Shown here: positions 3,484-41,100 of the stretch, piece after piece
How positions within the stretch are numbered: the first letter of the stretch is position 1
Layout of the letters: every line of letters starts with the position of its first letter
From: Phoronis australis
Lineage: Eukaryota; Animalia; Phoronida
Direction: 5' to 3'
Length of the DNA stretch: 64,000 nt
Assembly: GCA_002633005.1 (NCBI GenBank)
Contig: NMRA01000285.1
Span: forward strand, 62,001-126,000
Notes under the pieces: model-generated
Told to the model about the DNA's origin: nothing
Seen by the model: only the letters and a program-made list of their open reading frames with translations
Databases searched by the model: none
Position numbers and translations under genes: made by a program

Positions 3484-3783
3484 TTTCATTATATTACTTA
3501 CTGTGATAGAATTTTATTTCCGTTACCAACGATAACATCGAGACCATAAGCAACATAAGAAAAAGCTACAGAGTTAGTTTATTGATGCTGACCAATGCTA
3601 AAGTTGCTAATTCGAAAATGCCAATTGTGGACATTTGTGTGAGTTGAGTTGCTAAAGCAAAACAATCCTAGCACTGTAAAGAATATTGTGACACGGAATT
3701 TGATGAGAGTGAAAGGCCTCGTTTGATTTTCATTTTAGCCAGCAAAACCGGACAAAATGCTGCTTTGTCTTCCACATATGGTC

Positions 3784-4198
3784 GCATCAACAGATCACAC
3801 GATCGTTTGGACAACAGACTATATTACGCAAAAGGAAGTTGAAAGGCGAGCCGCGCGGAGTTGTTGTCAAAATCAGTGTTTCTTTAAATCCAGCATTCTC
3901 CTTGTCTTTGTCGCTTTGCATGTGGGTATATCGTACATTACATCAGAAAGATTTGAAACCAGTATTACTGATGATTTTAGCCAGTTAAACAGGACGAAAT
4001 GCAACTTGACGTGTGGTAGCATCAAAAGATCACAAGATCGCTTTGACAAGAGACTATATTACACAACTAAAAGGAAGGTCAAACGCGAGCTGTGCGCTGT
4101 TGTTGTCAAAATCAATGTTTCTTTAAATCCAACATTCCCCTTCATTGTGGCTTTGCATGTGGGTACATCGTACATCAGACAGAATTGGAACCAGTATA
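3784..4198. repeat. Diverged direct duplication (~185-bp copies, period ~235 bp) upstream of the VDE-like gene
   Basis: GCATCAACAGATCACACGATCG...GCTTTGCATGTGGGTATATCGTACA...GAAACCAGTAT (~3784-3965) is repeated as GCATCAAAAGATCACAAGATCG...GCTTTGCATGTGGGTACATCGTACA...GGAACCAGTAT (~4019-4198). Confidence 0.85.
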
Positions 4199-4245
4199 TA
4201 TAACGAGTGTGCTTGTTGAATGAAATTTCAGTTGATACACTGAGA

Positions 4246-6687
4246 ATGACGCGTTCGCTGATCTTTGTTCTCTCGTTCGTTTCGATTGTCTTCAGCGTTG
4301 ACGTGAACAAGGAGTTTGACTGTCTCGCGTCCAAATGTCCAGACAAGTTCTTGACATGCAAAAACGGCGACAATTGCATTCCAGGCATGTCTTGTATTGA
4401 ACAGTCAAATGGCAATATGACACAGTTTTTTGGCTGTTATGCTACTTTTTATAGCATTGCCCTCAGCGACTTGATCAACTGTGGCCTTTCATGTAAGTGA
4501 TTTTTACTGACTCCCAGGTTTGCCGTGCTAACGTCCACGGTAAAAATAAAAAAATAATTATGTTTTAGTGCTTCAAAATTATAGATTTGGTCAAAAATGA
4601 TGTTGTTCAACTTGTGTGCTGTTTTCTTGCATTTTCGAAAGCAACATTTGTCAATTCAAGCTCAATGATATTTTGCAGAAATAATCTTGCTATGTCGCAC
4701 GAATTCATTTTAAACTTTTATCTTCATTTTCGCAGACACTATATTGAAGTATTTTAAAACTTTAAAGTAGATGAATCTTAATTTTTATCATTTTTGATTA
4801 CTTTTGAATTGTTTGGAATTGAAAGTAGCTAGGCTTTGCGAGTTGCAAGAAAGTTCTGATTTCTTAATCAACAAAATCAGCTTGGACACATTAAGGTAAC
4901 TTTAAGTAATTATGTGACATCTGCTCATGCATAACCCTTGGGAGGGATCGCTTCTTGAAAGGTGTGTACAAGAGGCGACAAATTCTTCAACACCAGTGAA
5001 GTTCTCGGAATGCACTTTTCCCGATGCTTTCCCACTTGGTCAGGGGTCTGGAATAGTTTAGTCCGAAATTAGTGAAGTGCCTGGCATGTATTTTACCCGC
5101 TGCTTCCCTCACTTGTTGAGAGCCTGGTTTGTACTTTGCCCTACATTTCTCCAGCTACACCCAGCTTTTCGCCACCCCCCNAAAAGATAATGACCAGATT
5201 GTAATCATGACCACCCACCTCGACTAGTCGCCGTCTCTCTCTCTCTCTCTCTCTGATCGTCAACAGCCACCTCGCCAATCGTCATCACGACCATCTGATC
5301 ACTTGATCAGTATACAGATAACGCGATAAACATAAAAATATAACCAGATTAAGTGGTTTCTTGCTTTTTTGCGCGTGACTATGTGAATCTCTTTTTGTCT
5401 TCAGGTTTCGATAGCTACAGACTACCCGAGGCTGTGCCGACAGAGTGTAGAAAACCAGCTACTGAGTCGCTGCAGCCAAACTTCGATTTGAAATATCTGA
5501 CTGGAAAGTTCTATAATATTTACGGCCTGAACAGACTGTACGAGTGTGACGACAACACGCACCATTTCTTCATGAGGAAAAATGCCAACACTTTGATTGT
5601 TGTTGAATGGTATGATCTCCGCATGCTCAATGGAACCCCTCGCCATTTGGCGGACGAAGTGGTAAGTGATAAGTTTTGGACTGTGATTGGCAAAAATGGA
5701 AGCTATTAACAATTTTTGCTGATCAGCTGATGGACTCACAGGCCTGCAAACCAGCCCTGGGTCCAGGGTCTAATCTCCAAACTCCACCCACACTGGCTGA
5801 AACTGGGAACGTAACTAAAAGGACGCTCCGTGTTTTGAGGTGTCATATATGTAAGTTTACTCAAAGCTTGCCATGCAATTTGTCAATTTTCGAGTCCGAG
5901 TACAAAGATTAGTCCCCAGTCCCAGGTGAACCAGCAAAATTGGAAAATTCGATACTTTTTGGAAACAATCTGATTTCCCATTCAGGAATATTCTAATGCT
6001 GGTACCGAGTCCCCGTCCGTATTCAACGTAAACACCATCGGATCAGGATGGATTAAGCATGATGAATACAGAGTGATGTCATTTGGGGATAACTACGTAT
6101 TCCTTTACTACTGTGGAAAGTCTTCTAACATCACGTGAGTACTACCACTTCCGTTGAGCTCTAAGGATGGGCGTGGGGTACCTTCGTCAGCTGCTGTGGT
6201 GCTGTTGATCGCCCATCGTCAAGTCTCTTGCACATTTTTGTAATTGTCTTGTATGCTTTGCATTTCCACTGTAACTGTTTACAATTCATAGTCATAATAG
6301 CCATGTGTCGCCTACGTGCCTCTTGTTTTAATATCTTGGAACGTAGCTCCGTGGACGCACCTGGGATCCCTGCTTTTCTATAACACGTGAATTTCGAAAG
6401 GAGTAGGATGTTATCGTGCTTTGATGTAACTAGAATTCTTTGCCGGTCCTTCCTGTGAATTGTAAATTTATATTAGTATGCGTCTTATTAAGTGATCCTT
6501 TTTCTTTTTATTGAGCTTCACTCCTGATTGAAGATGTCCACCTTGCAGGTATGAAGGCGCTTTTGTGCTCTCGCGAAAACCAACAATCTCGGAGGCCGAT
6601 AAACAGGCCGCCATGAAGGAGGCAGCCAAGAGAGGCTGGGATCTTGAGAAGGACTTCTGTCGTAACAAGCAAGATTTTGATGAATAA
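4246..6687 (+). CDS. Secreted violaxanthin de-epoxidase-like (VDE/VDL-type) lipocalin-domain protein, 263 aa, 4 coding exons
   Basis: Exons 4246-4492, 5405-5661, 5986-6134 and 6549-6687; all GT-AG with matching phases (1,0,2), total 792 nt. Hydrophobic signal peptide MTRSLIFVLSFVSIVFS. Cys pattern C-x4-C-x6-C-x5-C-x5-C...C-x14-C. Lipocalin motifs FDLKYLTGKFYNIYGLN, HDEYRVMS and DNYVFLYYCG...YEGAFVLSR. AATAAA at 6717-6722. Confidence 0.85.
5235..5254. repeat. (CT)n microsatellite
   Basis: Direct inspection. Confidence 0.9.
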
Positions 6688-8539
6688 AAAATCAAGAACA
6701 GCTACAATTTGTGAAGAATAAAGAGATCAGTTACCTCCCTTGTAACAAGTAACATCGGGTTTTAAATTTCATGCCATATAAAACCGGTTCCATTAGTCGT
6801 ACAGGCTATGAAATTGGGCACTACAGACACAAAAATTATCACTTTGTATTGATTCTATGGTAAAATTGTAAGCTTATAACATATTTTCCAATTTTATCGG
6901 TTTTAACTTTGAAATTTGAACATCCATAAGACAGACGATTTCAGAGGCTATATAAGGACTCTCGAAATGTCGCAGAATTGACGACATGGAGTTCCCCGTT
7001 GTTATGATATAGATTTGCCCGAGTTCCAGCAAGCTTCGCCAAAGCACACCGAAATATCAAGTGTCTTCAGATTGATAAAAATCATTTACAAACTTTGCTG
7101 TGTGAGGTCGAATGATAGAGATTTCACCGTTTCTAATCTGCGTCAAACTTATCTGCGACGACGATTTCTTTCAGTATCTGTTTATAACTGGCATATAACT
7201 ATGAAATTTCAGCGAATTTCGCAGACGTATAAACAAGTAAGTCAGAAAGAAATAAACACTTAACATTTTTAAACATTTCGTATACCAAACAGCAACTAAT
7301 ATAAAGTCTACGCGCGTTTCGAGTTTCTTAGTGTTGAGATTTTGTCAAAAATATGTGTTTTTCACTAAACAATATTTCCGGGTGAGTATGCAAAGCACAC
7401 TCATAAATACTTGACCGAGGGCATGCTGGTAGAGCATGGAAGTCTTCGTATGTCAAAGGTGTTTTCGCGCTCCGCAAAAGGTCAGAATTTACGCGTGTTA
7501 ATATGAATTTTGCACCAGTGGTCAACCTACTTTTGTCCGTTTACGTACTGGGTCGACCCAGGTTTGACTGTCTTCAACCTGTCGTGACAGTAAATACAGT
7601 ATGAGTTGCGGACATATTGATCAGACAGTGTGGATAGTACAATGGCAGTAACTACCCAACGCAGAGACTAGCAGCTGCAGTGAGTTGCAGTTGCGTTGCA
7701 GACAAGTCACAGAGTATGTACTGACCTTCGGGAAGCATGTATTCAGAATTTCTCCCCTTGGTAATTCAGACATTAACACTTCATCAATAAACAGTGCAGG
7801 TACTTTTAATGTCAGCTTTTCATGTCCAGTAACAAGGTGAGTACTTAAACAATACTTAGTCTATACATTACATGTAGACAATCGTTATAGTTATACAATA
7901 GACCTGTATATTTTGACAATTAAAATAACTAACAGGCACTCGTAAGCCTATAGTATTCCTGCAACGATAAAACTGAGTCTAATTAGTAAACGCACACACA
8001 CACAGACACGCGTGTTCATGACATCCCATGTGGAACTGCAAAACTGCGACATCGGATCAGTATCGCGTTGTCGAGTCGCACTGTTTTCCTAATCCAGGTC
8101 TCTATACCTCTATGGCGTCTCTATGTTCATCATGGTTTGTGTGATTTTGGCTAGGGGGACTCATTTTTTCCAAATGTTCTATCTACAACAACCACACTGG
8201 ATTTTTTATTGTGTTAAACCGCACAGGAAGCCAGTGTCTGCCGATAATATAATGTGGCGCCACGTGTAGCTCCTATTAGATATTTTCACACGGCTTTATG
8301 TTTTTCTATTACAAGCACTATCACTTCATTTATTTACAACATATCATTTCGATGACGTATCTGCCACTAATATGGCTTGATTTGGACCCACAAATAGGAA
8401 TAGAAATGCACAATCACATCACATTTTCAAAAATTTTACAAGTCTTGGCTATTTTGCGATTCAAAGTAAGCGCGGGAGCAATTTATGAATTGAAATTGTT
8501 AAAACAATGAATTAATCGGTGTACCCGACAACGGTTGAA

Positions 8540-8672
8540 CCTACAGTAGTGTATGCTCCTGGGGGTTGAGAAGGCTGACGATTGACCAGGTCCATGGCCA
8601 TGAAATAATTACATTTTGAAGTGCTTAGTTATTTCTAGCGATACATAAATCTCACCTAGTTATCATTATTGT
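8540..8672 (+). mobile_element. Possible 3' part of a SINE / L2-type tail
   Basis: TGTATGCTCCTGGGGGTTGAG...GAAGTGCTTAG...ATAAAT...TTATCATTATTG resembles recalled invertebrate SINE tails that end in (ATT)n. Confidence 0.3.
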
Positions 8673-9716
8673 TTTAACTTTGTCATTTTAATTCTATTAG
8701 ATTAGGTCCAAAACGTCAAAATGACGTCACACTGAACAAGAAAGGACCCAATACAATGTACACAGTACTACATGCAACAAAGTTGTTCTAAGATTGTGTC
8801 AACGATAATAATACTAACAACAACGATAAAAATAATTCTAAATTCATTTTGTTTTGTAAAATCTATAATTAATCTAAACGGGTCATTTCCTCCCTGTTCA
8901 CAACAATCTTGGTAGAGACCTAATTCACGAGGCGGACAATAAAATCCAAAGCGAGGCTCACTGCGATAAACAAAGCGGAAGTTGACATTGCGTTCGTTTT
9001 TTAATTGGCCGGTCTTTTGAGTCCAACCTGGATATTAAATCTTAAAACTGTGTCGATAATTATTCACAGAGACGTAGAAAAATACATTAGAGAACAAACC
9101 AGTGCACAAATAAGTTGTCTGACGAAAGGGTATTGGCTAAATCACAATCAAGGTCCGTATTCGAGAGTTGACTTTGTTACGGTCTAATACTAATTTTTGG
9201 TCACTTACCAAATGCCAACTGAATCTCATATGCAAAGAGTTATTTAGCTGTGCAAATTAAAAAAGAATCATCAAAATCGGACAATGTTTGAGAAATTTAT
9301 GCATGTTTTTGTCTATGAATTTCATGCATTTTAGGGATACGAGTGGCCATTTTAAAAATTACAATTTTCAACTGTCAACTGTAGAAAAGAAGTTTATTTT
9401 ATTAAGTAAGCAATTGCTTAGATACGACTGGGAATAACTTGGGTCACTTTCAGAATCACTACGATGAGGTTGCGCTTAATGGTAGGGTTCCTCATAAAAC
9501 AGGCACTCGTTTCGAAATTTGTAAATTCTGTGCTTCTAGCCCTCACCTACTGTAAAGAAGGTTAAAAACTAAAGTTCACACTCTGTAATAAAAGAACTGC
9601 AGAATAAGTTAGCCTAGGCAACACAGCAAATAATTCAATATCTAAACAAACCAAGAGTTTGGATAGTGACTGGGTTCTGCTATGTTGAAAATGGGCCAAA
9701 AACGCTAACAAAATGT

Positions 9717-10570
9717 AATGTACGTACCCCCATGTGGAATTCAGTAACACAAACGGTCATTTTAAATGAAATTATTGCCTTTTAAGTAACAACATGGTGC
9801 TTATTATAATCAAAGGAAAATAAGTGGCCATGCAACATTATGTTACCATGTGATGCAGAAACAGTGATGTAGTGTACGTACCCCATTTTGTAGTGTACGT
9901 ACCCCAATGTTTATAAATGTCATGAAATTAAAATATCACTTGGTAAGTGAGCAACATTTGTCATAGACAGTTTCCTCCTTTAAAAATCTTAGTTTAAAAG
10001 GGTGTTTATTGAAAATACATTTGTTTTGAGTGAAATATTAGCATTTGTGTAGTGTACGTATCCCTATATTATATTTGTGCCTATTTTCAAAGTATGGCAG
10101 ATATGCACATGAATGCTGCGCTTTTTATTTTTTCTCTTTGAATTGATTTAGTAAATTAACTTAGTATTTAGTTAAAAAACTGACATGTCATTGAAGTGCA
10201 GTGTACGTACCCCTGTGTAGTGTACGTACCTTCAACATCTGTGCTATAAAGTATTGCCCTTAAGTATTTTTACATACTACTGTTCTCATGAACAATACTG
10301 ATATTTCCAATATGAATCCAGTCTGACAAAAAACATTGGAAATTATCAAATTTGTGGGCAATAAAATGCCACACAGGACTTGGCTAGTACTTAACATTCT
10401 ATAAGACACATCATGTGACAACTGATCTTGCAGAGGCAGGTTCCCTATCTCTCAAGACAACTTGCAATAAACCAACAAGTAGAGGCGGCACAAAATTCGA
10501 GACCATCCCATACATTTGTAACTTGGCCAAAATTTGACGTTGGTTGACTGTGCGTAGTGCACGTACCCTC
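9717..10570. repeat. Dispersed array of GTAGTGTACGTACCCC motifs, probable non-autonomous DNA transposon interior
   Basis: About 7 same-orientation copies near 9717, 9869, 9889, 10049, 10197, 10218 and 10555. Confidence 0.65.
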
Positions 10571-11656
10571 AACCAGTACCATTTTTATTGTTTAAAAGTT
10601 GAACACTTGGCCCAGCATTGCTTTAACTATTTTGTCCAACTGGTGAATATATTGAAAACTAGGCAAATAGCACCGATAAAGTTTTTGAAGAAAGTAGTTA
10701 CTTGTCGTTTTCTTTTTGTAAGAATCATATTGCAAGAGAAGAAGTTCTCATTATACCGTGTTAAGATAAGCAATGTAATGGTCATCTAGAACAACTTGAT
10801 CAGCACTGTAATGACTTTTCTTACTTTAGTATTGATACTTCTTCAGTTTGATCAAGAACTTATTAAATTATCAGCTACCTTATGAATTTTTGCTTGAAAA
10901 AAGTGGGCTGTGACTACAAGTTGTTGTGTGCTTACCCTTTTATACGACTGTGACGCATTGAGCCATAAAATTTTATTCGGTGGTTCTTGTCCAAAAATAT
11001 TTTAGATAACAAACCTGGAATGATGGTACTTTAAAATAACCCAGCTTTTACAGTTACATGACAACCTTCATTTTTCACCAAAAGTGGCGGCCACCGAATA
11101 TGGACCTTGATTGTGATTTTCCGTATATTTTTTGCGGAAAACTAGGTTCGAAACATGAAAAGTAAATACGACCAAACTGCGGCGATCGTAGTGTTACGGA
11201 TTAGGTATTGTGATGAATGCAAGTTTACGTAAACTGTAAATTGTTGAAAATGCTTTCTACACGAACCAGGTCATCTGCTCGTTTTGTTGGCGAGTTGAAG
11301 ATAATTCGACAGTGGTGGCTCATCGCATTTTGGGTGATGTGCAATTAGTCATATCTGGTTTGATTTGTTGATCAAGCATAGCCTAGGTCCTGGTGAAGTA
11401 AGGACTACCGGGGCTAACAGTTGATTTGTCATTGATCTGAAAATAAATAATTATATCTTTATTCAAATAAATAACCAGGCTCGTAATTGAAAATATTTGA
11501 CCATCAATTCTTCTTTCTTGGTTTTAATAATTCTTACGTCTATTTCAAGTTGAATTTTAAAATTAAAGCAACTAACTCGTTCGTCCAAAGCATAACATCG
11601 TTTTAGAGCTCAATTTCATAAAACTGGACAGAGCAAGTATAGTTATTATGTTTCTT

Positions 11657-11958
11657 CAGGAGCCTCGTGTATACGAGGGGAATGGTGCCTGTGCTTCCGA
11701 GAGGGGAATTTTTTCGCCAGTGAGGGGAAAATCTACCAATAGCACCCCGCCCTGTTGCAAGTTCTCATGGGCTCTGTCTCAAATAGCGGCATTTTGTGCT
11801 CTTTCAAATTGTCACCTGTGTGGTTAAGTGATTTGAACTTCGAAGAGAAATTTTTAATTTTTAGGCCTCGTGGGAGGAATTTCGCGTAATTTTTCAATAT
11901 TTTTAAGAGGGGAATAGGGCCGATATTCGGCCCCAAAATCGAGGGATTGAGGGCCCTG
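11657..11958. mobile_element. Possible hAT-like MITE remnant
   Basis: Imperfect ends CAGGAGCCTC / GAGGGCCCTG with repeated GAGGGGAA motifs inside. No TSD found. Confidence 0.3.
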
Positions 11959-13936
11959 TCATTTTTGGAAAGAAAAATGCATCATGTTTCAACCCGTATT
12001 GTCATGAAAACACAGCCTGGGTGGCCGAAGATTCTCCGGTTGTTGCTATGCTTGACAACCGCGATGCTACAAAATATGATCTAACTTTTCGAAAACATTT
12101 ATAAATTTTACACTGACACATTTTCTTTCGTCGCCGCGTTAGCAACGACCCAACGCTTCCGAATCTCAACGTCCTGGGATTGTAAAACGGACAGTTGAAT
12201 GTCCGTATTTTTTCTAGCAGTTCGAGCAACGCGGAACTAACTTAAGCCGATAAGCCAACAGCGAGCCTGGTTTTGGAACGCGCCTGCTGTCGGCGTGAAT
12301 TAAGTCTATAGGCCAAACTTATCCCACAATCTTTTTTTCCAGCACATCATTTGGTTTCTAAATGTGAGTTCACCAGCAATCGATGTGAATCAAAACAGAC
12401 AAATTTTGCTAGGGCAGGCCAACCTGGTAATTATGGGTGGCTTTTTGACTTGTTAGGGAATAGAAAGTCATTTCCTATTACGCTATGGGAAGGTTTGAAA
12501 CATTTGAGTTTCAGGAAATGTTGTGTGAAGAAAATGTTAATGGTTTTTACCGGGGTCATTATTACATTTTTTGGAGTCTGAAAAACACAATTAGGATCCA
12601 GGGTCCATTTCAGTGAAATACCGAAGCTGAAGACTTCACAAGAGCACCTTAGGGGCAACTTCGGCGGATAAATTAATGTTTCGGGAGGTATTTCGTATTC
12701 ACAAAAGTCCCGAGAGGCTTTTTAAGAAACTAAGCGGTGGACCTCTTCCGAAATATTGCCGACGACAGCGCCCTGGTCGGCCATGGACTTGAAATACCGA
12801 CCAGGTTCACTTCGGTTGAGCTACTAAAAGAAGTCCGAATAAGTGTTCAGCTTTAGATATTTTAACGTATAACCAAGCATTACGAAATTAGAAACTATTG
12901 ACATCTTGTCCACACAATTTTACATACAGATATATGCCCCTTTCCAGGCATTTAAAACAGAAGGGCCCCAGTGGGCAGCAATTTCCCCACATATTATGAA
13001 ATATGTGGCTCAATTTAGAGACCTGTTGTGCCCAGCCTGCACAATGGGACACAAATTTTTTTTAATGCGTCGATGGTGCGAGAAACGTATGAAATTAAAT
13101 CACTGACAACAAGAGAAGACAATTATTTTGACTGACGGTAAACTAGTGACAACTTCGAAAACAGGAAGCAATCTGAAGGTTGCTTTTAGGTTTATGCGAA
13201 ACAATAGCGGTGCCTGAGATGCAAATTTCTTCTCTAATGGTACATGTACGGAATGAATGTTGTTGAACTGTCTGGTTTATAATTTGCAGCGTTAGTATTT
13301 TTGGTGAAAGGGTTTTTGAATATAAAGTTTCCCATTGTTCGTGTTGCACAGGTTTTTAAAACGAACTTGTCATATGCAGGTATTTTTGCTTAGAATGGCG
13401 TATAGCGAATTAAATAATTTATGAGTCAAGGAGTAGCCGAATATAGCCCTTATATGCATGTGCACAAACATGAGAACTAATCGTATTCCCAGCAGCTATG
13501 TACACGGGGACAGTGCGCATTCATAGAAGTTAAAAGCGTCTATTTGCCGCGATCCTTCTGGTTGAGTTGCCCCTAAAATAAAACCATGTATTAAGAGCGG
13601 AAATTTTTGCTGAGGACGTAAATGGTAAGACATTACCACGCAATTCCTGCGAAAACCTTTGCTGATAGAACACGCAAACAGTGAACTCAATCCCACAATC
13701 CAACGCTCCAACCACACTGACCAATCACTGCAGTGGTCGACATTTTGCTAGGTATGGGCTAGTAAGCAGTCCGAGCCTACTCGCGAAACACTTGCATTTC
13801 ACTCGCCGGATTTTGCAAGAAATTAGTTCTACCTCTCGCAAAATCCGGCGTTCCACTCTCCAGTTCTCGTCTCGTGAAATAAGGTTTTGATTCTGTTGTC
13901 CGTTTTAGAGAATATAACATGAAATCCAGTCCAGTC

Positions 13937-16900
13937 TTACAGGGCTTCGTCAACCATAGATGTATCTGGGGTTAAGTTGTCCTCATCCCTCGTACCATTT
14001 TTGTGTTTTTCTAGTTCAAAATTAGCTTTTAACGACGCCTGTCGCGTGATTGAAGATGTTGTTCTTGCTGACGCGTACTGTGGCTTCTTAGACTTTTTAT
14101 TGCACGCGGTACAACATCGCAACGACTGCTTAAAACTTTCTCGAAAGTTCTTCGACATCAGTCCGTAAACGATAGGATTTATGCAGGAGTTAAAGTAAGC
14201 CATTAAGTAAAAGGCTTGTCGCATGGGCCGCATATCGTCATCTTTCTCGATCCTGTATCGTTCTTCAACATCTCGCACAGCCCCCACCAAGTTGGTGCAG
14301 AGGTATGGTCCCCAACAGATAGCGTACAATACGATGACGGCAACCAGCATTTTAATCACCTAAAACAATAGGTAATGACACCATTAAAGATCAAGTGCTT
14401 GGTAAGTTCTCATTCGGTACTTATTAGCTCTAACTTCCTGTATCGTATAAAAATGTTGCATGTGTGGATCGATTTAAAGGAGGGCCAGGGGGCCTGGGCT
14501 CTCCTTCGACCGGTTCACCATCAATAAACGGCACCTGGATACTGTTTCAGGGCTGTCAAGAACTTTATTCATTCTGAATAGTAGTTGTAACTTTTTTGTT
14601 GCTTTCGACCACGTGTAACGGTGAGTGATTGACCTTGTGGAAAGGCATTTAGGCCTACCTGTTTCCGCGTGTTTTCGTCGTCTTTGTTGCTTTGTCTTAC
14701 AAGGGGACGACCAGCTACGTGACCGTTAAGCGAGACACCCGTGTTCTCTTTTCCTTTTCCATCATCTCTGAGACAGCTGCCGGCATTATTACTTGTACTG
14801 AAAGACAGTACAATCGTTCATTGCTGACCTATGAAACAGGGTTACAAAAAATACTAGCAAAGCCCCTGCGGCAGAAAAATCTTCGTCAAGTCTCCCCCAT
14901 AATGCAACGTTCTAACCTCACAGACCAATCACCTCAGCAGCCGACATTTTGCAAGGGTATACTGATATGGTCCAAAGCCTACACGTGAAACACTAGCTTT
15001 TATTTGCGTGATTTTGCGTGGTGTATGTGATCTCCGTCTACGGAGCGCATCTCGGGACTGTTGAAATATTAAGCTGTTGGTTACCTCTGAAAAACATTTC
15101 TGTTGTGGCAAGATCTTGTCAAGGTTTTGTTTTTATTTTAAATTTATATTTAATAGACTTAGTGTTACTGAAATGAGACATTGAAATTGTACAGGGATAT
15201 CAAGAAATCTCTAATGCAAGGAGCAACGGAAACTTTAGTGGTAACAAGTGCGGTTTTTGACGTCCCAAATCACACATATATGTCGTGCTTTTATACATTT
15301 TTAGAAAAAAAATCCTGTTGTGTCGAGTCCTCTTTTATGGAATAGAATTCACAATGACTAGTTTTGGTAAAAATCTGAGAACTGGACCATGGTGTAAAAA
15401 GACTAATTTACCAGCCAAATAACTAATAGTGAAGCAGTATAATAACCAAACCAATCACAACGAGAATGATAAAACAAGCATGACATTCAATATCGTGCAT
15501 TTCATCAGTCTGGTCTGATTTGACTAAAAACAGGAGGCGGTTACGTAAAAATCATATCGAATACGAATGAAGACCACTTTGTCATCAAAATTGACCAGTC
15601 GGACTTTACATTTTCCTCATGTTATTCTTTTACATTTGAATAAAGTTACGTTCTGGCCGGCCTCCACTGTGACACAAGTCTTCAGTATTATACTTAGGTT
15701 CTGTATACAGTTACACTGCCCTCTTTAAGCGACACGTTCCTCGTTCTATTTCAAAGGACTCGCGCTCTTTCACAGTAAACAAGAGACTGTTGACCGTCTG
15801 TTGACTATTGACACGCCTCTACAAACAATCCAATACCCCTTCTATATTGCGCAGCGTAGGTGGTTGAACTTCTAGCGCAATGAAATTTAGGCATTGGTTC
15901 TTGGGCAATGGGCCTTCACCTTACGTGCGGTTGGAAAATTGTAGGATATACACGTACATGTAGCCACCCATCCAGCCTCTAATAGCACTTGGGGTGTGGG
16001 GGAACAACTCGAAAATGAAACCATTTGGTTTTCACCAGACACAATAATCCATGATCTAGTTTGTAAACGTATTTCAACATTTCAATTTGTTTCTTATTTC
16101 TCTTATATTCAGTAATATTTATGAGACTAAAAATAATTCAATTGCTGTTCAATGATTTCGTGTGCCGGTTGTTTATTTTTGCATATTAACCTTTATGAGA
16201 TAAGACAATAGAAGCACATGCTAAGGTTGCAAATACATGTTCTTACTTATGTCCACTTGATTTTAATACACCGGTTTACCTCACCCTTGAGTGACCTACA
16301 ACGGATCGGGTGTCAAAACTGTACGGCACACTCTATAAATAGAGGCTAGATTTCAGCAAGACTAATATTGATACACTCACACGCACGCACGCACGCACGC
16401 AGCACGCACACACACACACACGCACACAAACACACACACACATATTATGAAAAATATAATGTGCAATAATTGACGTTAATCCCAGAAAGCATTTGGGCGT
16501 AAAAAGGGTATTCGCGTTTATCACCAAGGCACGCCCTTGCAACAAAAGTGTTATAGAATCGAGACGAGGTTTTCTACTTGAACGTAGCTGTGACACTTCC
16601 TAGCGTTTAGTCACGTGATCAGCCATCAAATCTGACTAAACTCTTCGTAAAGATCAAAGCAACTATTTCATGTCACCTTACAGATTTTTATCGTTGACAT
16701 GTGTATGCTCTCCATGCAACAACGGAAAGTGAGTTTGTCAAACACTACAGCAAATGGCCAGCATCTGGGTTCAGTATTCATTTCCGTTGAGACTGTCTAC
16801 AATAGTGCACAATGGAGGAGAGTGCAGACTCTAGATGGCGGCGTAACTTTTCACTGTTGCATGAGCATTCAAATCACGCCAGGGAAACAACAATTAACGC

Positions 16901-19900
16901 TTAAAAATTTCTCTCCAAAGTAACAAGGGATCTGCAGGAATTTCCATTTTAAAGGATCGGAAAGCTTTTTCATGTCTCACCTTGTTTGCGCACGCAGGCT
17001 GGCGCGCCTCCATGTCATATGATGTAGCTCTAGACAAATGTTAGAGTAAGCAAAGACCATGATACCCAGAGGAAGGATGTAAAGGATCACCATCATATAA
17101 CATTCATAAACTATTGACCAAGACTTGCTGCTCCAGATCTTTTTGCACCAATGAGCTTCCAACTTAATATGGTGCCCTTGTAGCGTCTGAATATTCTGAA
17201 AGAAAAGAACATTTGTTTTGATCAGCTACACTCAAGCCACTCTGACACCAACACAATAGCTGTCCCATAAAAGTACATGCAACTTCAGACTTAAGACAGA
17301 AATTTGGTCTTGCGCTCCAACTCCACGATTACAGAAAAAAAGGTTTAGTCAAGTAATTTATAAGCGCGTTACAGTCTATAAAAAGAACTATCCCAGTAAC
17401 CAGCAGTGATGGTGTACATTCTCAGAGATTTTAAACTTTTGCTCGTGTGAGATTTATTTTTTCTGAAATAATTGTATGGAGCGCAAGATCAAATTTCTGA
17501 CGGACACGTGACTTTTCATGACACAGGTATCAGAGCAAGCCACATAACTGATGTACAGTGTATTAACTTAAGGAAAGTCAATAAATTGTAATTGGAACTC
17601 GACGACCTGGGTACTCTCACGGAGGATGTGCTGTTCAGAAGGGTGATTTTTCTGTGGCAAGTTTCCTTTCGAAAAGGTGCGTTTTCTATCATAATTACCC
17701 AAGAAAAGATACCTCTCCCTCCAAAAGGGTTTATTATGGATGTTCAATACTTTGTAAAAGGTTCCTTTTATATAACACATATTGACAAAAGGGTTTAACA
17801 TCATCTATATTTTTAAAACTTTGATTGCCAGGATGTACTCAGTTTCGACAAAATGACGTCCCGTCTTGTGCCGTCTCAGTCTTAATAGGTTAAACTTCGG
17901 CTGTGCAAGAATCCCTTTCAAATAGTTAATGTAATTATTCCTCACAAAAGGGTTACGTTTCCGGAAAAATTCTACAAAAGAGTTACTGTTACATTGAAAC
18001 TCCCTATACGATATTCTCATTTTCTGATTCCTCTCTCTAAATGGCTGCGTATCCTAATTTCACGATGCACCTCGTTAAAATACATTCGAGTACCCCCGGG
18101 GCAGAAGTACAAGTATCCGCCGACAGTTCCCCCACTGGTGTCCATCGGCCTTTGAAGTGGTTAATACAGCCATTGGACAACCCTTTCAATGTCACGAAGA
18201 CTTTACAAGATACCACAAATGCATTCAGCAAGTATCTATTCACGAATTGGTCAACTTTAAAATAAGTCTTGTACCTGGGGACATGGAGAAATGTGGTAGG
18301 CCTACACAGAAATCTGACCTTAAGCTGAGATAACTATTTCAAACGCGAAAGGTACCACTCTCTTCGACCAAAGGCATTTCATAGGTCGACTTCGTGTTCT
18401 TCATAACGCATATACAGTACAAGCTAGGATATGTCTACGTGAAACAACTGTCGAAGTTTTCTCACTTAGGTTAGAGATTCAAGATCTTGGAATGCCTAAT
18501 TCAACAAAATCTTGGAAACGCCAACATATCAAGTTTGTACATAGCTTTGTACCGACATTGGTGACATTTCAATAAACAAGAAGACGTCTGCTCATCAAGT
18601 TAAAGACGACTACGTCAACTACATGGGCCGCAGCTGTGCCAACAGTGCTAATACTGACGCTGCCACGTCTGTACATTTCAGTAGTTAAACAGCGAGTATT
18701 CACGGAATGCCTGCCGCGGACGAAATGCGTTCTCTTGGCACCTGCTCAATGGCCAATTAAATTGGTTTGAGCCACGTGTATTTGTTGCAACTCTGCAGGT
18801 AACATAGGTAGGCCTAGGGCTGATTGCTGTTGCCAGTTGAGAAGCTGAGGAATTACTGTAGCTTTTACTTTAAACATTGAAGGAAGTTCAATGCGAAAAC
18901 ATTACTTGGCAAATTAACCAGGATTAAGGGTAACTGTAGAGTTTTTTCGACTCCATAACATCATGCGCGCACCCAGGGGGGCTCGGGGGGCTCGAAGGAG
19001 CCCCCCCCCCCATTTAGCGAAGTGGGCAAAAAGGTCCGCCTCTGACAGACAAAAAGTCCGAGAAAATGAATTCATTAAACACGCGCAAACGCGTAATTCA
19101 CAATGGTGCTCCCTCTTTTATTTATTTTTTTAGTCCGCCCACTTTTTTGTTGCCAAGAGGTCCACAAAGTCAGGAATTCGAGCCCCCCCCCCCATATTGA
19201 AGGCTGGTTGCGCGCATGAACATGGACTTCGTGTATGAGAAACTGTTTCCTTACAGGAAACTAAAGTGAGCAAGACTCTCAATAGACGCTGTCGTCGCGT
19301 TTCTCAGATTGGAACTTCAGCGAAGCCCTAAAATAGCCGCCTGATCACCGTGCGTCGGAATTTTCATCGGTAAATATTTTCTGTTTTTATAGCAGTAAAA
19401 CTGCTTTTTCAGGAACGACGCATTGGATTAATGATTTAGGTAACGAATGCCAAATGAACGAGCTCAATCAAATTTGGCGTTGCAGACGCGAATTTACCCA
19501 CATGGAGACCGCTCACCAACCGTGAAATACGGCTTCTGCCATTGTATACGGCTTCTACCATGGTATACTGATTGGCTCTACTTTCCCATATATAACAGTT
19601 GATTAAGTGACGTATACAACATCCATATTTCCACATATCGGATAAGATCATGTATTCGCATTTTGATGTGTCGTGCGTTGCACTTTTCCCACCAATAGGG
19701 GATATTTTTTGGATTTTGGAGCCTTTCGGAAAATGTTTAGACCAAAAATGACTTCATAGATAACTAGCTGCTCCTTTTTGAAAAACATCAAACAGTCGGA
19801 AGTTGATGTCACTCTCATTCATCACCACTGTTTACTATGTCTTCGTAATCTTCGCCTGTTGAAATAATTTTTCGCCCTTTCTTGTATGGTAGGCCTATCC

Positions 19901-22900
19901 AGATATCTGTCATTTTTCATTCAAAATTTGTCGAAACCTCAATTTTTTCTTTTCATTCTCTGCAACTGTTACTTACTTGGCCAATCAGTATAGGTACTGC
20001 CAACACCAGCGAGCCAAACCAAACGCCAACGACCACGGCTCGAGCGTGTGCTATGGTGCACATGTACTTCGCCTGTATAGGCCACAAAATTGCGTAATAT
20101 CTGAAAATTTAGTATATAGTTTATTAAATATCAACTCGCTACGTTGACCATGACTTTTGTTATTTCAGCACCAAACAGTTTTATATATCATGACATGACC
20201 AGAATCTGGTTTAATGAATGATTTCTGTGATTAGAATCCAATGCACTCAGTTGGAGCCCTAGCGACCAGTCCTGGCAGCTTCAAGCAAAAGGAATCAACA
20301 TTAACTACGTCTGTCAACACCAGTTTGCACTCGCCAAATGTTTTCTTGTGGGTATAAATACGGTAAGCAGCCAATCAAAATGAGAGATAGAGGGAGAGGT
20401 TGAGGCAGAGGGAGGGGTAAGCGAGAAGGAGATGGAAGGTGAGTGGGTTAGGGGGGAGGGGCAGGAGAGAAAGTTACAGGGAGAGACAGAGGCAATGGCA
20501 ATGGAATTGGGGCGGGTAGGGAAGAAGAAGGGATGGGGAGAGAGAGGGGGAGAGGTAGAAGGGCACAGAGCGTATAAACAAAATTACAGCACTGGTGGTT
20601 CTTCGTGGCCCCCGGAAGGTATAAAACCGTTACATTCAGAGACCATTGAATCAAATTGAAATTAGTATGGTGAAAGTTTGTAACATCATTAGTTCAAAAT
20701 TTATACCACGAAACTATGGCTTATTGACGACCACGCCCAAATAGAGCAGGGGCCCGTTCCAACAAAACTGACTTAGTTAAGATAAATCCTAAATTTTAGT
20801 AAATTTTAATATAAAAGTTAAATTTGTTTCAAAACCAATTCAAGAAAGAGATCTTAAGTTTGAATTAACTGTGTGAAGTAAGTTTTGTCTTAAATTTCAC
20901 TAACTAACAGCACGTGGAAGTTTCAAAGTTCGGAATTTAAAACAAATCTTAAACTTAAGTCAAAAATGAACTCAAGTCAGTTTCTTGGAACAGGCCCCAG
21001 ATCTTTTTTTTTCTTTGTCTGGTCAATCGAAGACTTCAGTTATAGTGAGCGTAAATATTTTACATGAAATAATAGAAAAAAATGACATTACTGTACGCGT
21101 TTGATTGATTTGTGGGTAAATGCGACACGTGCCCTCCACTTGGGTGACTCGGTTGACGTGTGCACAAATGAGTTAATGGATGTGCTAGGGAGGTAGTGTG
21201 GCGCTGGATAGTAGAGATACATACCCTATGGGAGGTACTAGAGATACATACCCTATGGGAGGTACTAGAGATACATACCCTATGGGAGGTACTAGAGATA
21301 CATACCCTATGGGAGGTACTAGAGATACATACCCTATGGGAGGTACTAGAGATACATACCCTATGGGAGGTTTTTCGTTGAATGAAGGTTGTCACCAAGA
21401 AAACATGACACCAGTCAAACGTTTCTTTTTCTGAAACCTATGTTTCGTGCTGGGTTTTCGGGAAATGTACTGCGTGTTATTTGACTTAAAATAGATTCCG
21501 TTCTTGTTTTAAAGCTGCTAAAAACATGTCTTATGCCAAGAAAGTGCTAACGTTTGTTTTTGACAGTCTATCTCTGTGATATTTTTCACAACAGGTTCTT
21601 TACTCGGATTAGAAGTGATTTATTGTTTTGCAAAGAACTGGCAGCTCGGGCGTTAAGTGACCCGCCGGGTTAAACCAACTTATTGAATTGAGTATCGAGT
21701 AAAAACGAATTTTCTTTCCTTCCAGTCATCCAAAAAATTACTTCTAATCTGGGTGAGGAACAATTTAGACCAACTTTATAACGATATATGGCCTAAACAA
21801 CAAGTAAAGTTTTAACAGAACTTGAGCTTATTGGTATAGAACCTTTAAAGAAATAATTTTAGCAGTATGCCTACATCCCTGTATACCCTGGCATTGTGGT
21901 CGCCCGTGGAAGGTTTAAACTAAATACTGCTACCCTGATTGCAAAGACCTAATTCTAGTCCACGAGTCTCCCTCTTTTGTGAAAAACGGCTTTGAAAATG
22001 ACATTCGTTCAACATGACATCAATATTCAAAATAAACAGAACACAGCGCAGATAATTAAAGGTTGAATTCATACTCTTGTGGCCGTAGTACAACGAAATA
22101 TTAGCCACAGTATAGAATACCACTAAATGAAAAACACAATACATACGGGGTTGTAATTTACGAAACTTTCCTAAAATGTTAGTGGGTGATAACACTTAAA
22201 ATTGATGGAAACAAAAGAAAGAGTCTCTTCGAACGAATGACGTCCAAAGGGACTACTGTAAATGACGTCACAAGGGACTACTGTGAATACCGTCATAAGG
22301 GACTAGTGTGGTTACCTTTCTAAACTCATGACTGTCAGCGTCGATACAGAGCAGATCATAGACACGTTCTGGAGGTAATGAACAAGCTTGCACAGGAATT
22401 CTCCCAGTTCCCACGAGAAAGATAAGAATGACGCGAACTGGTAATTAAAGTTAAAACAATTAAAAAATCAGCTTCGGTGCCATGTTTCCCTTTCAAATGA
22501 ATACATGCACCTTTACAAATGAAAAATAAAAAGCGCTATTTGAAAAAGTATATCGATGTATATTAAAACATTGCAGGAAAAACAAGACAGGGATGGAAAG
22601 TCTTGAACTTAAGGAACAGCTATTTGTTGTTAATTCCAAGTGAAAAAGAAAACTTTGCAAAGTGTAACTAAAACAACTAAGATTTTTGCTGATCATCAAT
22701 TAGTCATAAAGAGTTAAAATGTCATTTACTTAATTCGTTCAGTTCCACACTATAATGATAGCCACTAGGAACAGTCAAAAAGATACTAGACATTCAAATT
22801 AACCTGTACAAATCATAGCGTTAATAACCTCGCTGTAAAGTCGACCAAACGATGCTACATATATTTCAAATGTCCACTGGCATTTATAAACAACAGTTTT

Positions 22901-23365
22901 TGGTTGTAATTTTTTATGTTAAGTGACAAGAGCGGGATAATTGTTTATTTCATGTCTCGGCAACGGAGGTTCTTTCTATGGATTTATGGTAAAAACTGAC
23001 AAAATTCGTGATTTCTAAATACCTATAAATAAAAGTTAGCATGTGGGTCTTACCTTGACAGGCACGCAGATGAGAATCAGAAGTAGGTCCGCACAAGACA
23101 ATGATATTAAAAACACGTTGGTCACATTTCTCAAGCGTTTATAGCGGACCACTGAAAATATAACCAAACTGTTGCCGGAAAGCCCCAGCAATAGCGTAAG
23201 TCCGTATACTATGGCATTGGGAATAAAATCGTTCAGGGGAGCCATGCTGTGGATCGTGTGACCTTCCGGGTACTCATAGGTTCCATTATAATCGTCGTAA
23301 TCAGCCTGATAATAGTGCGGGGAATGTTCCCCACCCGCCATGTCATAAGTCATGTCGGTATCCAT
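13937..23365 (-). CDS. Class A (rhodopsin-like) neuropeptide GPCR, CCK/QRFP/orexin-receptor-like, 444 aa, 6 coding exons
   Basis: Exons (-) 23365-23054, 22437-22316, 20100-19977, 17195-16981, 14797-14659 and 14359-13937; all GT-AG with phases 0,2,0,2,0, total 1335 nt. Motifs: TM1 GNSLV, TM2 NVFLISLSCADL, ECL1 WELGEFLCK, TM3 LERY, TM5 ILPL...AY, TM6 ICWGP, TM7 NSCINPIVY, helix 8 NFRESF. Confidence 0.93.
16372..16442. repeat. (CA)n/(CACG)n microsatellite
   Basis: Direct inspection. Confidence 0.9.
17297..17499. mobile_element. MITE with ~23-bp terminal inverted repeats (related copy near 39010-39180)
   Basis: CAGAAATTTGGTCTTGCGCTCCA (17297-17319) versus TGGAGCGCAAGATCAAATTTCTG (17477-17499). 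The same end motif occurs at ~39018. Confidence 0.7.
18962..19218. mobile_element. MITE with 15-bp TIRs and 5-bp TSD (AACAT)
   Basis: CATGCGCGCACCCAG / CTGGTTGCGCGCATG. AACAT at 18957-18961 and 19219-19223. Internal GAGCCCCCCC repeats. Confidence 0.85.
20385..20562. repeat. Purine-rich (GA/GGA) low-complexity tract
   Basis: Direct inspection. Confidence 0.7.
20750..20997. mobile_element. PIF/Harbinger-type (Tourist-like) MITE
   Basis: TIRs GGGCCCGTTCCAACAAAACTGACTT / AAGTCAGTTTCTTGGAACAGGCCC. 3-bp TSD CAG at 20747-20749 and 20998-21000. Confidence 0.85.
21212..21371. repeat. 27-bp minisatellite, ~6 identical copies
   Basis: Unit TAGAGATACATACCCTATGGGAGGTAC. Confidence 0.95.
22236..22310. 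repeat. 25-bp tandem repeat x3 next to the GPCR exon-2 donor
   Basis: AATGACGTCCAAAGGGACTACTGTA / AATGACGTCACAAGGGACTACTGTG / AATACCGTCATAAGGGACTAGTGTG. Confidence 0.85.
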
Positions 23366-24494
23366 GATGTCGATGGTCCACTTTTCTTGATTGGTTAAAT
23401 TTGTTAGCCGGCTTACAGAAATTTCACCTAGACATGATTCGTAGTTGTTTGTGTATAACGCCACCAACCACAACACAGTCTGTAGTGCAGACACCTGCTG
23501 TGGCGTTTTTTATGCTTGACTGGAAAACATGCGAATATTTTCAAGAAGTGTAAACTAGCGTTATCCACTTGAAGAATGCCCACCAGATTACTTAGCACTG
23601 AGAGAACACTCCCGTTTTCGTTGGCCGTTGTCTTTCAGATCTCGTTCGTCAGTAGTTTACTATGGTAAATCTATGGAGGGAATACGACGTAGAATCAGTT
23701 AAGGAATTTCAAAGTGTCTATAAATAATGTAAAGTTAATCATCACTTTAAGAAGCAAGGCCGAACCTTTAATTTAACAACTTTCCTCTGTAAAATTGGCC
23801 TCGAATTGTCCCCTACTAAGACGAAGAAAGATTTTTGGGTTTGGCAAGAACTGACAGTTCGTTATTCCTCAAGACTGTGTTCACGCCGTGACAAGTTAAC
23901 TTCTAGAGCTTGGTCTCAATCAATAACAACCTGTCATTTCTTTGAAGCCCTGAAGTTGTCTTTTAATTTAACAACAATTTCCGATCAGTTTCATAACGGC
24001 AAGTGTTCTAAATCAGAAGTTGTTTTTTGTGATAGAAGACGGTTTTATTGCCGCTCTAAGTATTTCTAAAACATTTTCCTTGAAAAGAATTCTTCTCTAA
24101 ATTGCCACCTGTGTCAACGTTTAAATCTCGATTGCCAGAGTGAATGGAAGAAAAACATTAAGAAAATCCGTGAATCAAATGTCAATAATACAACGCTCAA
24201 AGTCAGGTTCAGCTTACCTGTATGAATCAATGGCTTCGAACACAACAATTGTCAATTAAGAATCAGCCCTTAGCCTTTTCAACGTTCGTCGCAAAAAGCT
24301 AATGCGTGTGTATGAAGCCAAAATCGTTCATGGCTTTATAAGCGGAGAATAGTTAGCGTCAGATGGTCCGTAAACCACAATGTTATTTTGTTGATGTTTG
24401 CTTCAACAGCGCACAGCCATCTGAGTCTCTTCAAATTGATAAGACAGACTATAACAACAGATTTCTATCAAAGAGTGTCAATTAAGGAATAAAT

Positions 24495-40459: not shown

Positions 40460-41100
40460 NNNNNNNNNNNNNNNNNNNNNNNNNNNNNNNNNNNNNNNNN
40501 NNNNNNNNNNNNNNNNNNNNNNNNNNNNNNNNNNNNNNNNNNNNNNNNNNNNNNNNNNNNNNNNNNNNNNNNNNNNNNNNNNNNNNNNNNNNNNNNNNNN
40601 NNNNNNNNNNNNNNNNNNNNNNNNNNNNNNNNNNNNNNNNNNNNNNNNNNNNNNNNNNNNNNNNNNNNNNNNNNNNNNNNNNNNNNNNNNNNNNNNNNNN
40701 NNNNNNNNNNNNNNNNNNNNNNNNNNNNNNNNNNNNNNNNNNNNNNNNNNNNNNNNNNNNNNNNNNNNNNNNNNNNNNNNNNNNNNNNNNNNNNNNNNNN
40801 NNNNNNNNNNNNNNNNNNNNNNNNNNNNNNNNNNNNNNNNNNNNNNNNNNNNNNNNNNNNNNNNNNNNNNNNNNNNNNNNNNNNNNNNNNNNNNNNNNNN
40901 NNNNNNNNNNNNNNNNNNNNNNNNNNNNNNNNNNNNNNNNNNNNNNNNNNNNNNNNNNNNNNNNNNNNNNNNNNNNNNNNNNNNNNNNNNNNNNNNNNNN
41001 NNNNNNNNNNNNNNNNNNNNNNNNNNNNNNNNNNNNNNNNNNNNNNNNNNNNNNNNNNNNNNNNNNNNNNNNNNNNNNNNNNNNNNNNNNNNNNNNNNNN
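40460..41100. other. Assembly gap (N run)
   Basis: Continuous Ns. Confidence 1.

Follow-up and report, generated by a model that had tools for sequence, protein, structure and literature searches.

Violaxanthin de-epoxidase (VDE) and its closest relatives, VDL and VDR, combine a Cys-rich N-terminal domain with a lipocalin barrel, and in the available part of a 2026 review the family is treated as one of photosynthetic eukaryotes, with no animal member mentioned there (PMC13181403). The best-described member is the Arabidopsis VDE (structures 3CQN/3CQR, Pfam family PF07137), in which Asp177 and Tyr198 are essential, mutation of either abolishing activity according to the same part of that review. 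VDL1 and VDL2, from chromalveolate algae, act as violaxanthin-neoxanthin tautomerases and convert diadinoxanthin to allenoxanthin; the tautomerization of violaxanthin by VDL1 is described, in the sections available of the original report, as needing no ascorbate (PMC7056318). VDR proteins are found in plants, green algae, and diatoms. Two VDE-family sequences from non-photosynthetic eukaryotes have been reported, to which the gene presented here can be likened by their published descriptions. The first, a VDL-like EST from the oyster Crassostrea virginica, was described by Coesel and coworkers in 2008 as the sole sequence of its kind in non-photosynthetic eukaryotes, and they suspected it of being algal contamination (PMC2483416). 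The second is a gene of the protist MAST-4, the product of which lacks an N-terminal extension as far as the available text describes it (PMC3998028). As for the chemistry, marine invertebrates hydrolyze or open, cyclize, and rearrange dietary carotenoid epoxides, and as of 2011 the enzymes and genes for these epoxide steps were unidentified in these animals, according to the sections available of a review of that year (PMC3093257).

We have analyzed a 64-kb stretch of the Phoronis australis genome assembly, hereafter the window, which contains a gene of this family. As the first-pass annotation had proposed from the letters of the DNA, this is an intact four-exon gene encoding a protein of 263 aa. 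On the + strand, exon 1 (4246-4492) encodes a likely signal peptide (aa 1-17) and a VDE-type Cys-rich domain with eight Cys (aa 26-83); exon 2 (5405-5661) encodes a linker and then the first half of a lipocalin barrel, including motif I; exon 3 (5986-6134) encodes Asp194 (6061-6063), Tyr196, Tyr210 (6109-6111), and Cys211; and exon 4 (6549-6687) encodes the last barrel strand (motif III), a C-terminal helix, Cys255, and the stop. The intervening introns, all with GT..AG borders, measure 912 nt (intron 1, 4493-5404, phase 1, with a single N at 5181), 324 nt (intron 2, 5662-5985, phase 0), and 414 nt (intron 3, 6135-6548, phase 2). When joined, the four exons read as a single open frame, with 263 codons before the stop. 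In a tblastn search of the window with P0001, a full-length relative described below, the matching segments correspond, in order, to these four exons (E 1e-24 to 3e-7, the next match having an E of 0.5), and there is no second copy of the gene within the 64 kb. Upstream, also on the + strand, lies a likely core promoter (4195-4233) consisting of a TATA box (4195/4197-4203) and an initiator, TCAGTT (4228-4233), whose A+1 at 4230 is 16 nt ahead of the ATG. A TATA-initiator pair at such spacing is unique on the + strand of the window and occurs once more on the - strand, the motif having been picked post hoc with the site already in view. A candidate poly(A) signal, AATAAA, is found downstream on the + strand (6717-6722), and a second AATAAA overlaps the stop at 6683.

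The predicted protein has a hydrophobic N terminus (hydropathy peak of 3.0), in which the signal peptide was called from hydropathy and by eye. The first Cys is preceded by 25 residues, most of which belong to a single hydrophobic stretch, and just 8 residues separate it from the likely signal cleavage site. There are 12 Cys in total, that is, the eight at aa 26-83 and four in the barrel region, together with three N-glycosylation sequons. The protein has no Glu-rich tail, and ends 8 residues beyond its last Cys.

Transcription of the gene was assessed in three raw RNA runs (X1-X3) and one contig set (X4), all with the same species label. In both X1 and X2, exons 2-4 are covered on the sense strand by letters equivalent to ~8 reads, and 9/13 and 9/12 reads, respectively, are at least 99% identical to the gene. 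Intron 2 is spliced out in three X1 and two X2 reads, and intron 3 in three X1 reads and one X2 read. The exon junctions, which the first-pass annotation had proposed to confirm by RNA-seq, are thus supported for introns 2 and 3, so that spliced transcripts, the lack of which it would have held against the gene, do exist; the junction of intron 1, in contrast, is absent from the reads. Expression is low: X1 and X2 have ~1-2 reads per kb per million records, and X3 and X4 provide no clear exonic cover of the gene at 92% identity. Exon 1 received zero RNA letters in X1-X4, although the 5' edge of exon 2 is reached by ~4 X2 reads. Of the 12 X2 reads, 4 continue into unlike sequence, in two cases probably at the upstream repeat. 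If coverage is assumed to be uniform, an empty exon 1 has a P of ~0.003-0.007 if nine independent fragments are counted, and of 0.04-0.11 per run. These missing reads are a result against the gene model. Duplicate molecules, joints below threshold, or an alternative 5' end are possible explanations, and exon 1 is still backed by its predicted promoter, by the order of the Pfam matches, and by a gap-free alignment of P0001 across intron 1.

Homology to the VDE family, which had been suggested from plant VDE sequences, was confirmed by profile comparisons on single exons and on the full-length relative P0001. Matches to PF07137 follow one another in order along the gene, at positions 3-63 for exon 1 (E 0.0058), 77-131 for exon 2, and 201-240 for exon 4. 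By itself, exon 2 scores 28.4 bits, which is over the curated cut-off of 25.7, whereas exon 4 by itself scores higher for Lipocalin_2 (E 5e-5) than for VDE (E 0.0025), and exon 3 by itself has no Pfam match. P0001 was retrieved when exon 2 was searched against 1.84 billion representatives, which returned three matches. It is a singleton of 260 aa from a 981-base Logan contig, 44% identical to the window protein over 259 aa (E 5e-79), with a global score of 572 vs. no more than 30 in any of 500 shuffles; identity is higher in the barrel (73/129) than in the Cys domain (22/70). P0001 matches PF07137 along almost its entire length (positions 2-240 of 242) with 124 bits and an E of 8e-36, but Lipocalin_2 (PF08212) with only 14 bits (E 0.05), and it does not match PF00061. 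Its best PDB match is Arabidopsis VDE (3CQN, E 2.6e-5), residues 100-250 aligning with residues 9-166 of 3CQN (151 vs. 158 residues). With a profile, 3CQN is matched at an E of 1.6e-7 vs. 3e-3 for bacterial Blc and crustacyanin. These two proteins and ApoD resemble the window protein in their barrel and C-terminal helix and, probably, in being secreted, but they have no Cys-rich N-domain. Instead of placing the protein among ordinary lipocalins devoid of a VDE score, which would have spoken against the original proposal, the full-length comparisons give VDE scores exceeding those of generic lipocalins. The gene is very probably a real animal member of the VDE superfamily.

The two other proteins returned by the exon 2 search were discarded as non-VDE, P0002 because it consists of three ordinary lipocalin units and P0003 because it is a repeat protein. 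Word-based protein searches yielded no relative among 83 candidates for exon 2 and five for exon 1, and a profile search returned P0001 as the sole hit among 1,378 candidates. A contig motif scan for VDE relatives produced 10 matches, all 10 by chance; viral, plasmid, and phage scans produced no real VDE-family match; and three metagenome matches of 11-14 residues were judged to be chance. PF07137 was absent in samples of 5, 401, 401, 86, and 401 prokaryote genomes, from four phyla, in a scan run without positive control. An AlphaFold model of P0001 had a pLDDT of 42, and a fold search with it returned lipocalins in its top rows but with weak scores (Foldseek E of at least 0.014, VIA Z of at most 5.1), 3CQN being tied near the top of the VIA list (Z of 4.9, rmsd of 4.2, 79 residues aligned). 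Since this model is of low confidence, these fold matches were left out of the support.

The Cys-rich domain strengthens the assignment. The spacing C-x4-C-x6-C-x5-C-x5-C followed by a later C-x14-C, which the first-pass annotation had quoted for VDE, is present in the window protein, where the spacers are 4,6,5,5,13,14,3. The three motifs that it had picked out in the window protein are also present, and the plant VDE motifs that it had given as their counterparts agree with the deposited 3CQN chain. In P0001, the spacers are 4,6,5,5,3,5,3,14,6, which is identical at eight of nine places to the 4,6,5,5,3,8,3,14,6 of Arabidopsis VDE (N-domain Cys numbered according to PMC13181403). All 10 N-domain Cys are kept in P0001 and 8/10 in the window protein, where the last is shifted by three residues, and C26 of the window protein would be residue 9 of the mature form, as is C9 in VDE. 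In contrast to VDE, one disulfide pair is gone from the N-domain of the window protein, since both Cys of the predicted disulfide C37-C46 are missing. Their loss as a pair fits a domain that would still be folded.

We next to this compared pocket residues, for which the position in the 3CQN chain plus 76 was taken as the mature VDE numbering, an offset consistent for T112, D114, D117, Q119, H121, F123, R138, D177, W179, and Y198; residues of the window protein were mapped through P0001. The two residues essential in VDE are kept both in the window protein and in P0001, D177 as Asp194 and Y198 as Tyr210, a conservation that rests on two sequences because one relative was found. E129, C130, and D132 of the window protein occupy the positions of D114, A115, and D117. 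An acid at 114 and D117 itself are also kept, as are F123 and the aromatic character of position 155. Other VDE residues have changed. The Q119 position is Thr134 in the window protein and Ser in P0001, the R138 position is Asp in both (Asp153 in the window protein), the W179 position is Tyr in both (Tyr196 in the window protein), the C118 position is Asn/Tyr in the two proteins, and the Q153 position is Val in the window protein and Gln in P0001. The H121 position is His136 in the window protein but Lys in P0001, while the Y214 position is Leu225 in the window protein but Tyr in P0001, so that the His-Tyr pH trigger is incomplete in each of the two. Unlike VDE, both proteins have gained a Cys where VDE has A115 and R199 (C130 and Cys211 in the window protein). 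A disulfide between these new Cys is plausible because D114 bonds Y198 in closed VDE, as described in the part of the review available (PMC13181403).

Judging from these diagnostic features, the predicted protein falls within the VDE superfamily but outside VDE, VDL, and VDR proper, since it has no Gln at position 119, no complete His-Tyr pH switch, and neither an acidic tail nor a plastid leader. It resembles VDE in its Cys-rich N-domain and same-sized lipocalin barrel, but VDE has a thylakoid leader and a Glu-rich domain of ~100 aa where the window protein has a simple signal peptide and no such tail. VDL1 and VDL2 likewise have no acidic tail and keep Y198. However, VDL is plastid-targeted, and the available descriptions give it a larger barrel and, at position 177, a Glu (PMC13181403, PMC2483416), in contrast to the likely signal peptide, the Asp, and the VDE-sized barrel found here. 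VDR shares the Cys domain and the lipocalin, but it is described in the available part of the review as having a Glu at 177 (PMC13181403), where the window protein has Asp194; moreover, VDR was reported in 2008 to be without the PF07137 signature (PMC2483416), whereas P0001 reaches 124 bits against today's PF07137.

What might such a protein do? The reading that we prefer, and to which we assign a probability of roughly 45%, is that this is a secreted animal protein of the VDE superfamily that opens or rearranges the epoxide of a dietary xanthophyll without ascorbate. The signal peptide would route the protein to the secretory path, and hence to the gut lumen, a lysosome, or a body fluid, and its disulfide-bonded N-domain would pack onto the barrel as in VDE. 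Asp194 would protonate the 5,6-epoxide of the carotenoid, the role played by Asp177 in VDE, and Tyr210 would be its polar partner; the new Cys pair, C130-C211, would tie a lid beside the equivalents of D114 and Y198. Given the loss of the Gln119 position, of the His121-Tyr214 pH trigger, and of the acidic tail, one would expect a redox-neutral reaction that is not switched by light, possibly a hydrolysis, an allene tautomerization, or a pinacol-type rearrangement. The chemistry would then be akin to that of the ascorbate-independent algal VDL1 rather than to that of VDE. Several observations run against an epoxide enzyme, namely, the Tyr at W179, the Val at Q153, and the Asp at R138, as well as the low expression and the exon 1 without reads.

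Alternatively, the protein may be a secreted, non-catalytic carrier of carotenoids or lipids, a VDE-derived lipocalin that has reverted to binding in the manner of ApoD or of crustacyanin, which binds a carotenoid. We regard this as somewhat unlikely. The signal peptide and the sequons would suit a circulating protein, the residues for the VDE cofactor and pH switch are gone, and most lipocalins bind only, as stated in the available part of PMC13181403. However, both sequences have retained Asp194, a buried acid, as well as Tyr210, despite the changes at Q119, C118, and W179, and polar pocket residues of this kind are taken, in that same text, as a sign of catalysis (PMC13181403). Low expression is also atypical for bulk carriers, the right tissue being possibly unsampled.

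It is less probable still that the same chemistry is applied to a non-carotenoid substrate, such as an epoxy fatty acid, an oxylipin, or a terpenoid or sterol epoxide, which would be an ancestral role of the family. The carotenoid contact W179 is replaced by Tyr in both sequences, and the MAST-4 gene, in the available account, represents a family member outside phototrophs (PMC3998028). Yet F123 and an aromatic residue at the F155 position are kept, and the assayed members named in the literature examined, including the sections available of PMC13181403 and PMC7056318, all use xanthophylls.

A true ascorbate-dependent de-epoxidase, converting violaxanthin to zeaxanthin or diadinoxanthin to diatoxanthin in an acidic compartment, is in our view very improbable. 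Such an activity would agree with the VDE-sized barrel, with the Asp at 177, as in VDE rather than the Glu of VDL and VDR, with the acids kept at 114 and 117, and with the His that the window protein has at 121. It is at odds with the replacement of Q119 by Thr or Ser, of R138 by Asp, of Y214 by Leu in the window protein, and of H121 by Lys in P0001, as well as with the missing Glu-rich tail.

The surroundings of the gene are those of an animal genome. A neighboring gene, ~7 kb downstream and on the opposite strand, encodes a class A peptide-type GPCR (7tm_1; 13940-23509, - strand, first and last coding exons seen), with the CCK-A, NPY, melatonin, and somatostatin receptors as its best PDB matches, and the same RNA runs contain its reads in the opposite mate orientation. 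The first-pass annotation had placed both genes on one gap-free stretch, which holds from exon 2 to the GPCR, where there is no N, but not for intron 1 with its single N; the first long gap of the window is at 40460-41100. The DNA between the two genes is rich in high-copy host repeats, which draw thousands of diverged reads. Third-position GC is 0.54 in the gene vs. 0.50-0.54 in the GPCR exons, and the tetranucleotide divergence of the locus is 0.037, the 16 bins of the window ranging between 0.024 and 0.089. We found no sign of the chimera that the first-pass annotation had considered, and contamination is unlikely because of the GPCR ~7 kb away, the host repeats, and the host-like composition. 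The gene has host-type introns and sits at a definite place between genes that are truly animal, as the available methods of PMC4729200 require, among other criteria, of a gene acquired by HGT. These points of context would fit a long-resident gene. That the gene stems from an algal or protist contaminant, the origin assumed for the oyster EST (PMC2483416), or from an assembly chimera would be in line with that precedent, with the single relative, and with gene introns that have no repeat in common with the rest of the window (blastn), but it is extremely improbable in the face of the N-free path from exon 2 to the GPCR, a composition and third-position GC that match the host, spliced 99%-identical reads in two of three same-species raw RNA runs that also cover the GPCR, a repeat just upstream of the gene that is matched in all four RNA datasets, and the 8 residues between likely signal cleavage and the first Cys, which leave no room for a plastid transit peptide.

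How an animal came by this gene can be explained in three equally plausible ways, by transfer from an alga, by transfer from a non-algal (e.g., bacterial) donor, or by ancient retention with many losses. The latter two are as plausible as the first because of the VDE-like gene of MAST-4, among others, as it is described in the text available (PMC3998028). In the literature examined, mostly from non-subscription journals, we found no description of a genomic VDE-family gene in an animal, and a term search of the main text of PMC8420045, PMC3494510, and PMC4729200, and of two supplement files of the last, detected no mention of VDE. The view that the family is unrecognized in animals consequently stands for genomic genes but not for animal sequences altogether, since the oyster VDL-like EST was published in 2008 (PMC2483416). 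That EST is without genomic context, unlike the gene in the window. The gene extends a known family to a kingdom in which it was not expected.

These findings have implications for both the VDE family and the biology of marine invertebrates. Since an animal chromosome carries an expressed copy with introns, the VDE family can be truly animal-encoded. It also provides a concrete candidate for animal carotenoid epoxide metabolism, a field in which, in the available sections of the 2011 review, the chemistry was known but the enzymes were lacking (PMC3093257). Together with its relative in MAST-4, the gene bears on a question that has been stated before, the source of the xanthophyll-cycle enzyme. 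More tentatively, and from the sequences considered here, this gene may represent a fourth, secreted, animal branch of the VDE family that would be the missing enzyme for opening and rearranging dietary epoxides, and of which the oyster EST would be a real member; we consider this possible, although the odds are against it. If true, this fourth branch would handle the conversion of fucoxanthin, diadinoxanthin, and peridinin into the own pigments of marine invertebrates.

The three introns of the VDE-family gene, which lie within 4493-6548, measure 912, 324 and 414 nt, and each length is divisible by 3, so that all four exons share a single genomic frame. Three introns would all be multiples of 3 by chance in about 1 case in 27; the 4493-6548 span contains 32 stops.

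As for the RNA, no letters were placed on exon 1 (4246-4492), despite several reads of the raw run X2 touching the 5' edge of exon 2 (5405), and the transcript may have an alternative 5' end. At the other end of the gene, sense-strand reads of another raw run, X3, appear at 6092-6755 only at 90-92% likeness, and these may stem from a repeat in intron 3, or else from a diverged allele or a paralogue. Just upstream of the gene, a tandem duplication with a unit of ~240 bases (3732-3965 and 3974-4197, copies 79% identical) reaches as far as the TATA box. Partial reads from all four runs (X1-X3 and the contig set X4) fall at 3975-4007, which therefore likely includes a dispersed repeat.

P0002 (526 aa, ENA), a match to the exon 2 protein search set aside as non-VDE, carries three ordinary lipocalin domains in tandem and is likely secreted.

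Elsewhere in the window, high-copy host repeats are dense at 8100-12700, where the copies around 9100 and 11125 are related to each other, and at 16700-21400, and a perfect tandem array of a 27-base unit occupies 21212-21371. The neighboring class A GPCR, of the CCK/NPY/QRFP-like peptide-receptor type, spans 13940-23509 on the minus strand, its first and last coding exons having been mapped. Also on the minus strand, a Ser/Thr/Lys/Gln-rich open frame of 598 codons (44899-46692), with no Pfam match and no credible NCBIfam match, is likely a single large exon. Finally, a plus-strand open frame at 62550-62885, matched by neither Pfam nor NCBIfam, looks similar to a stretch of the ciliary protein AHI1/jouberin.
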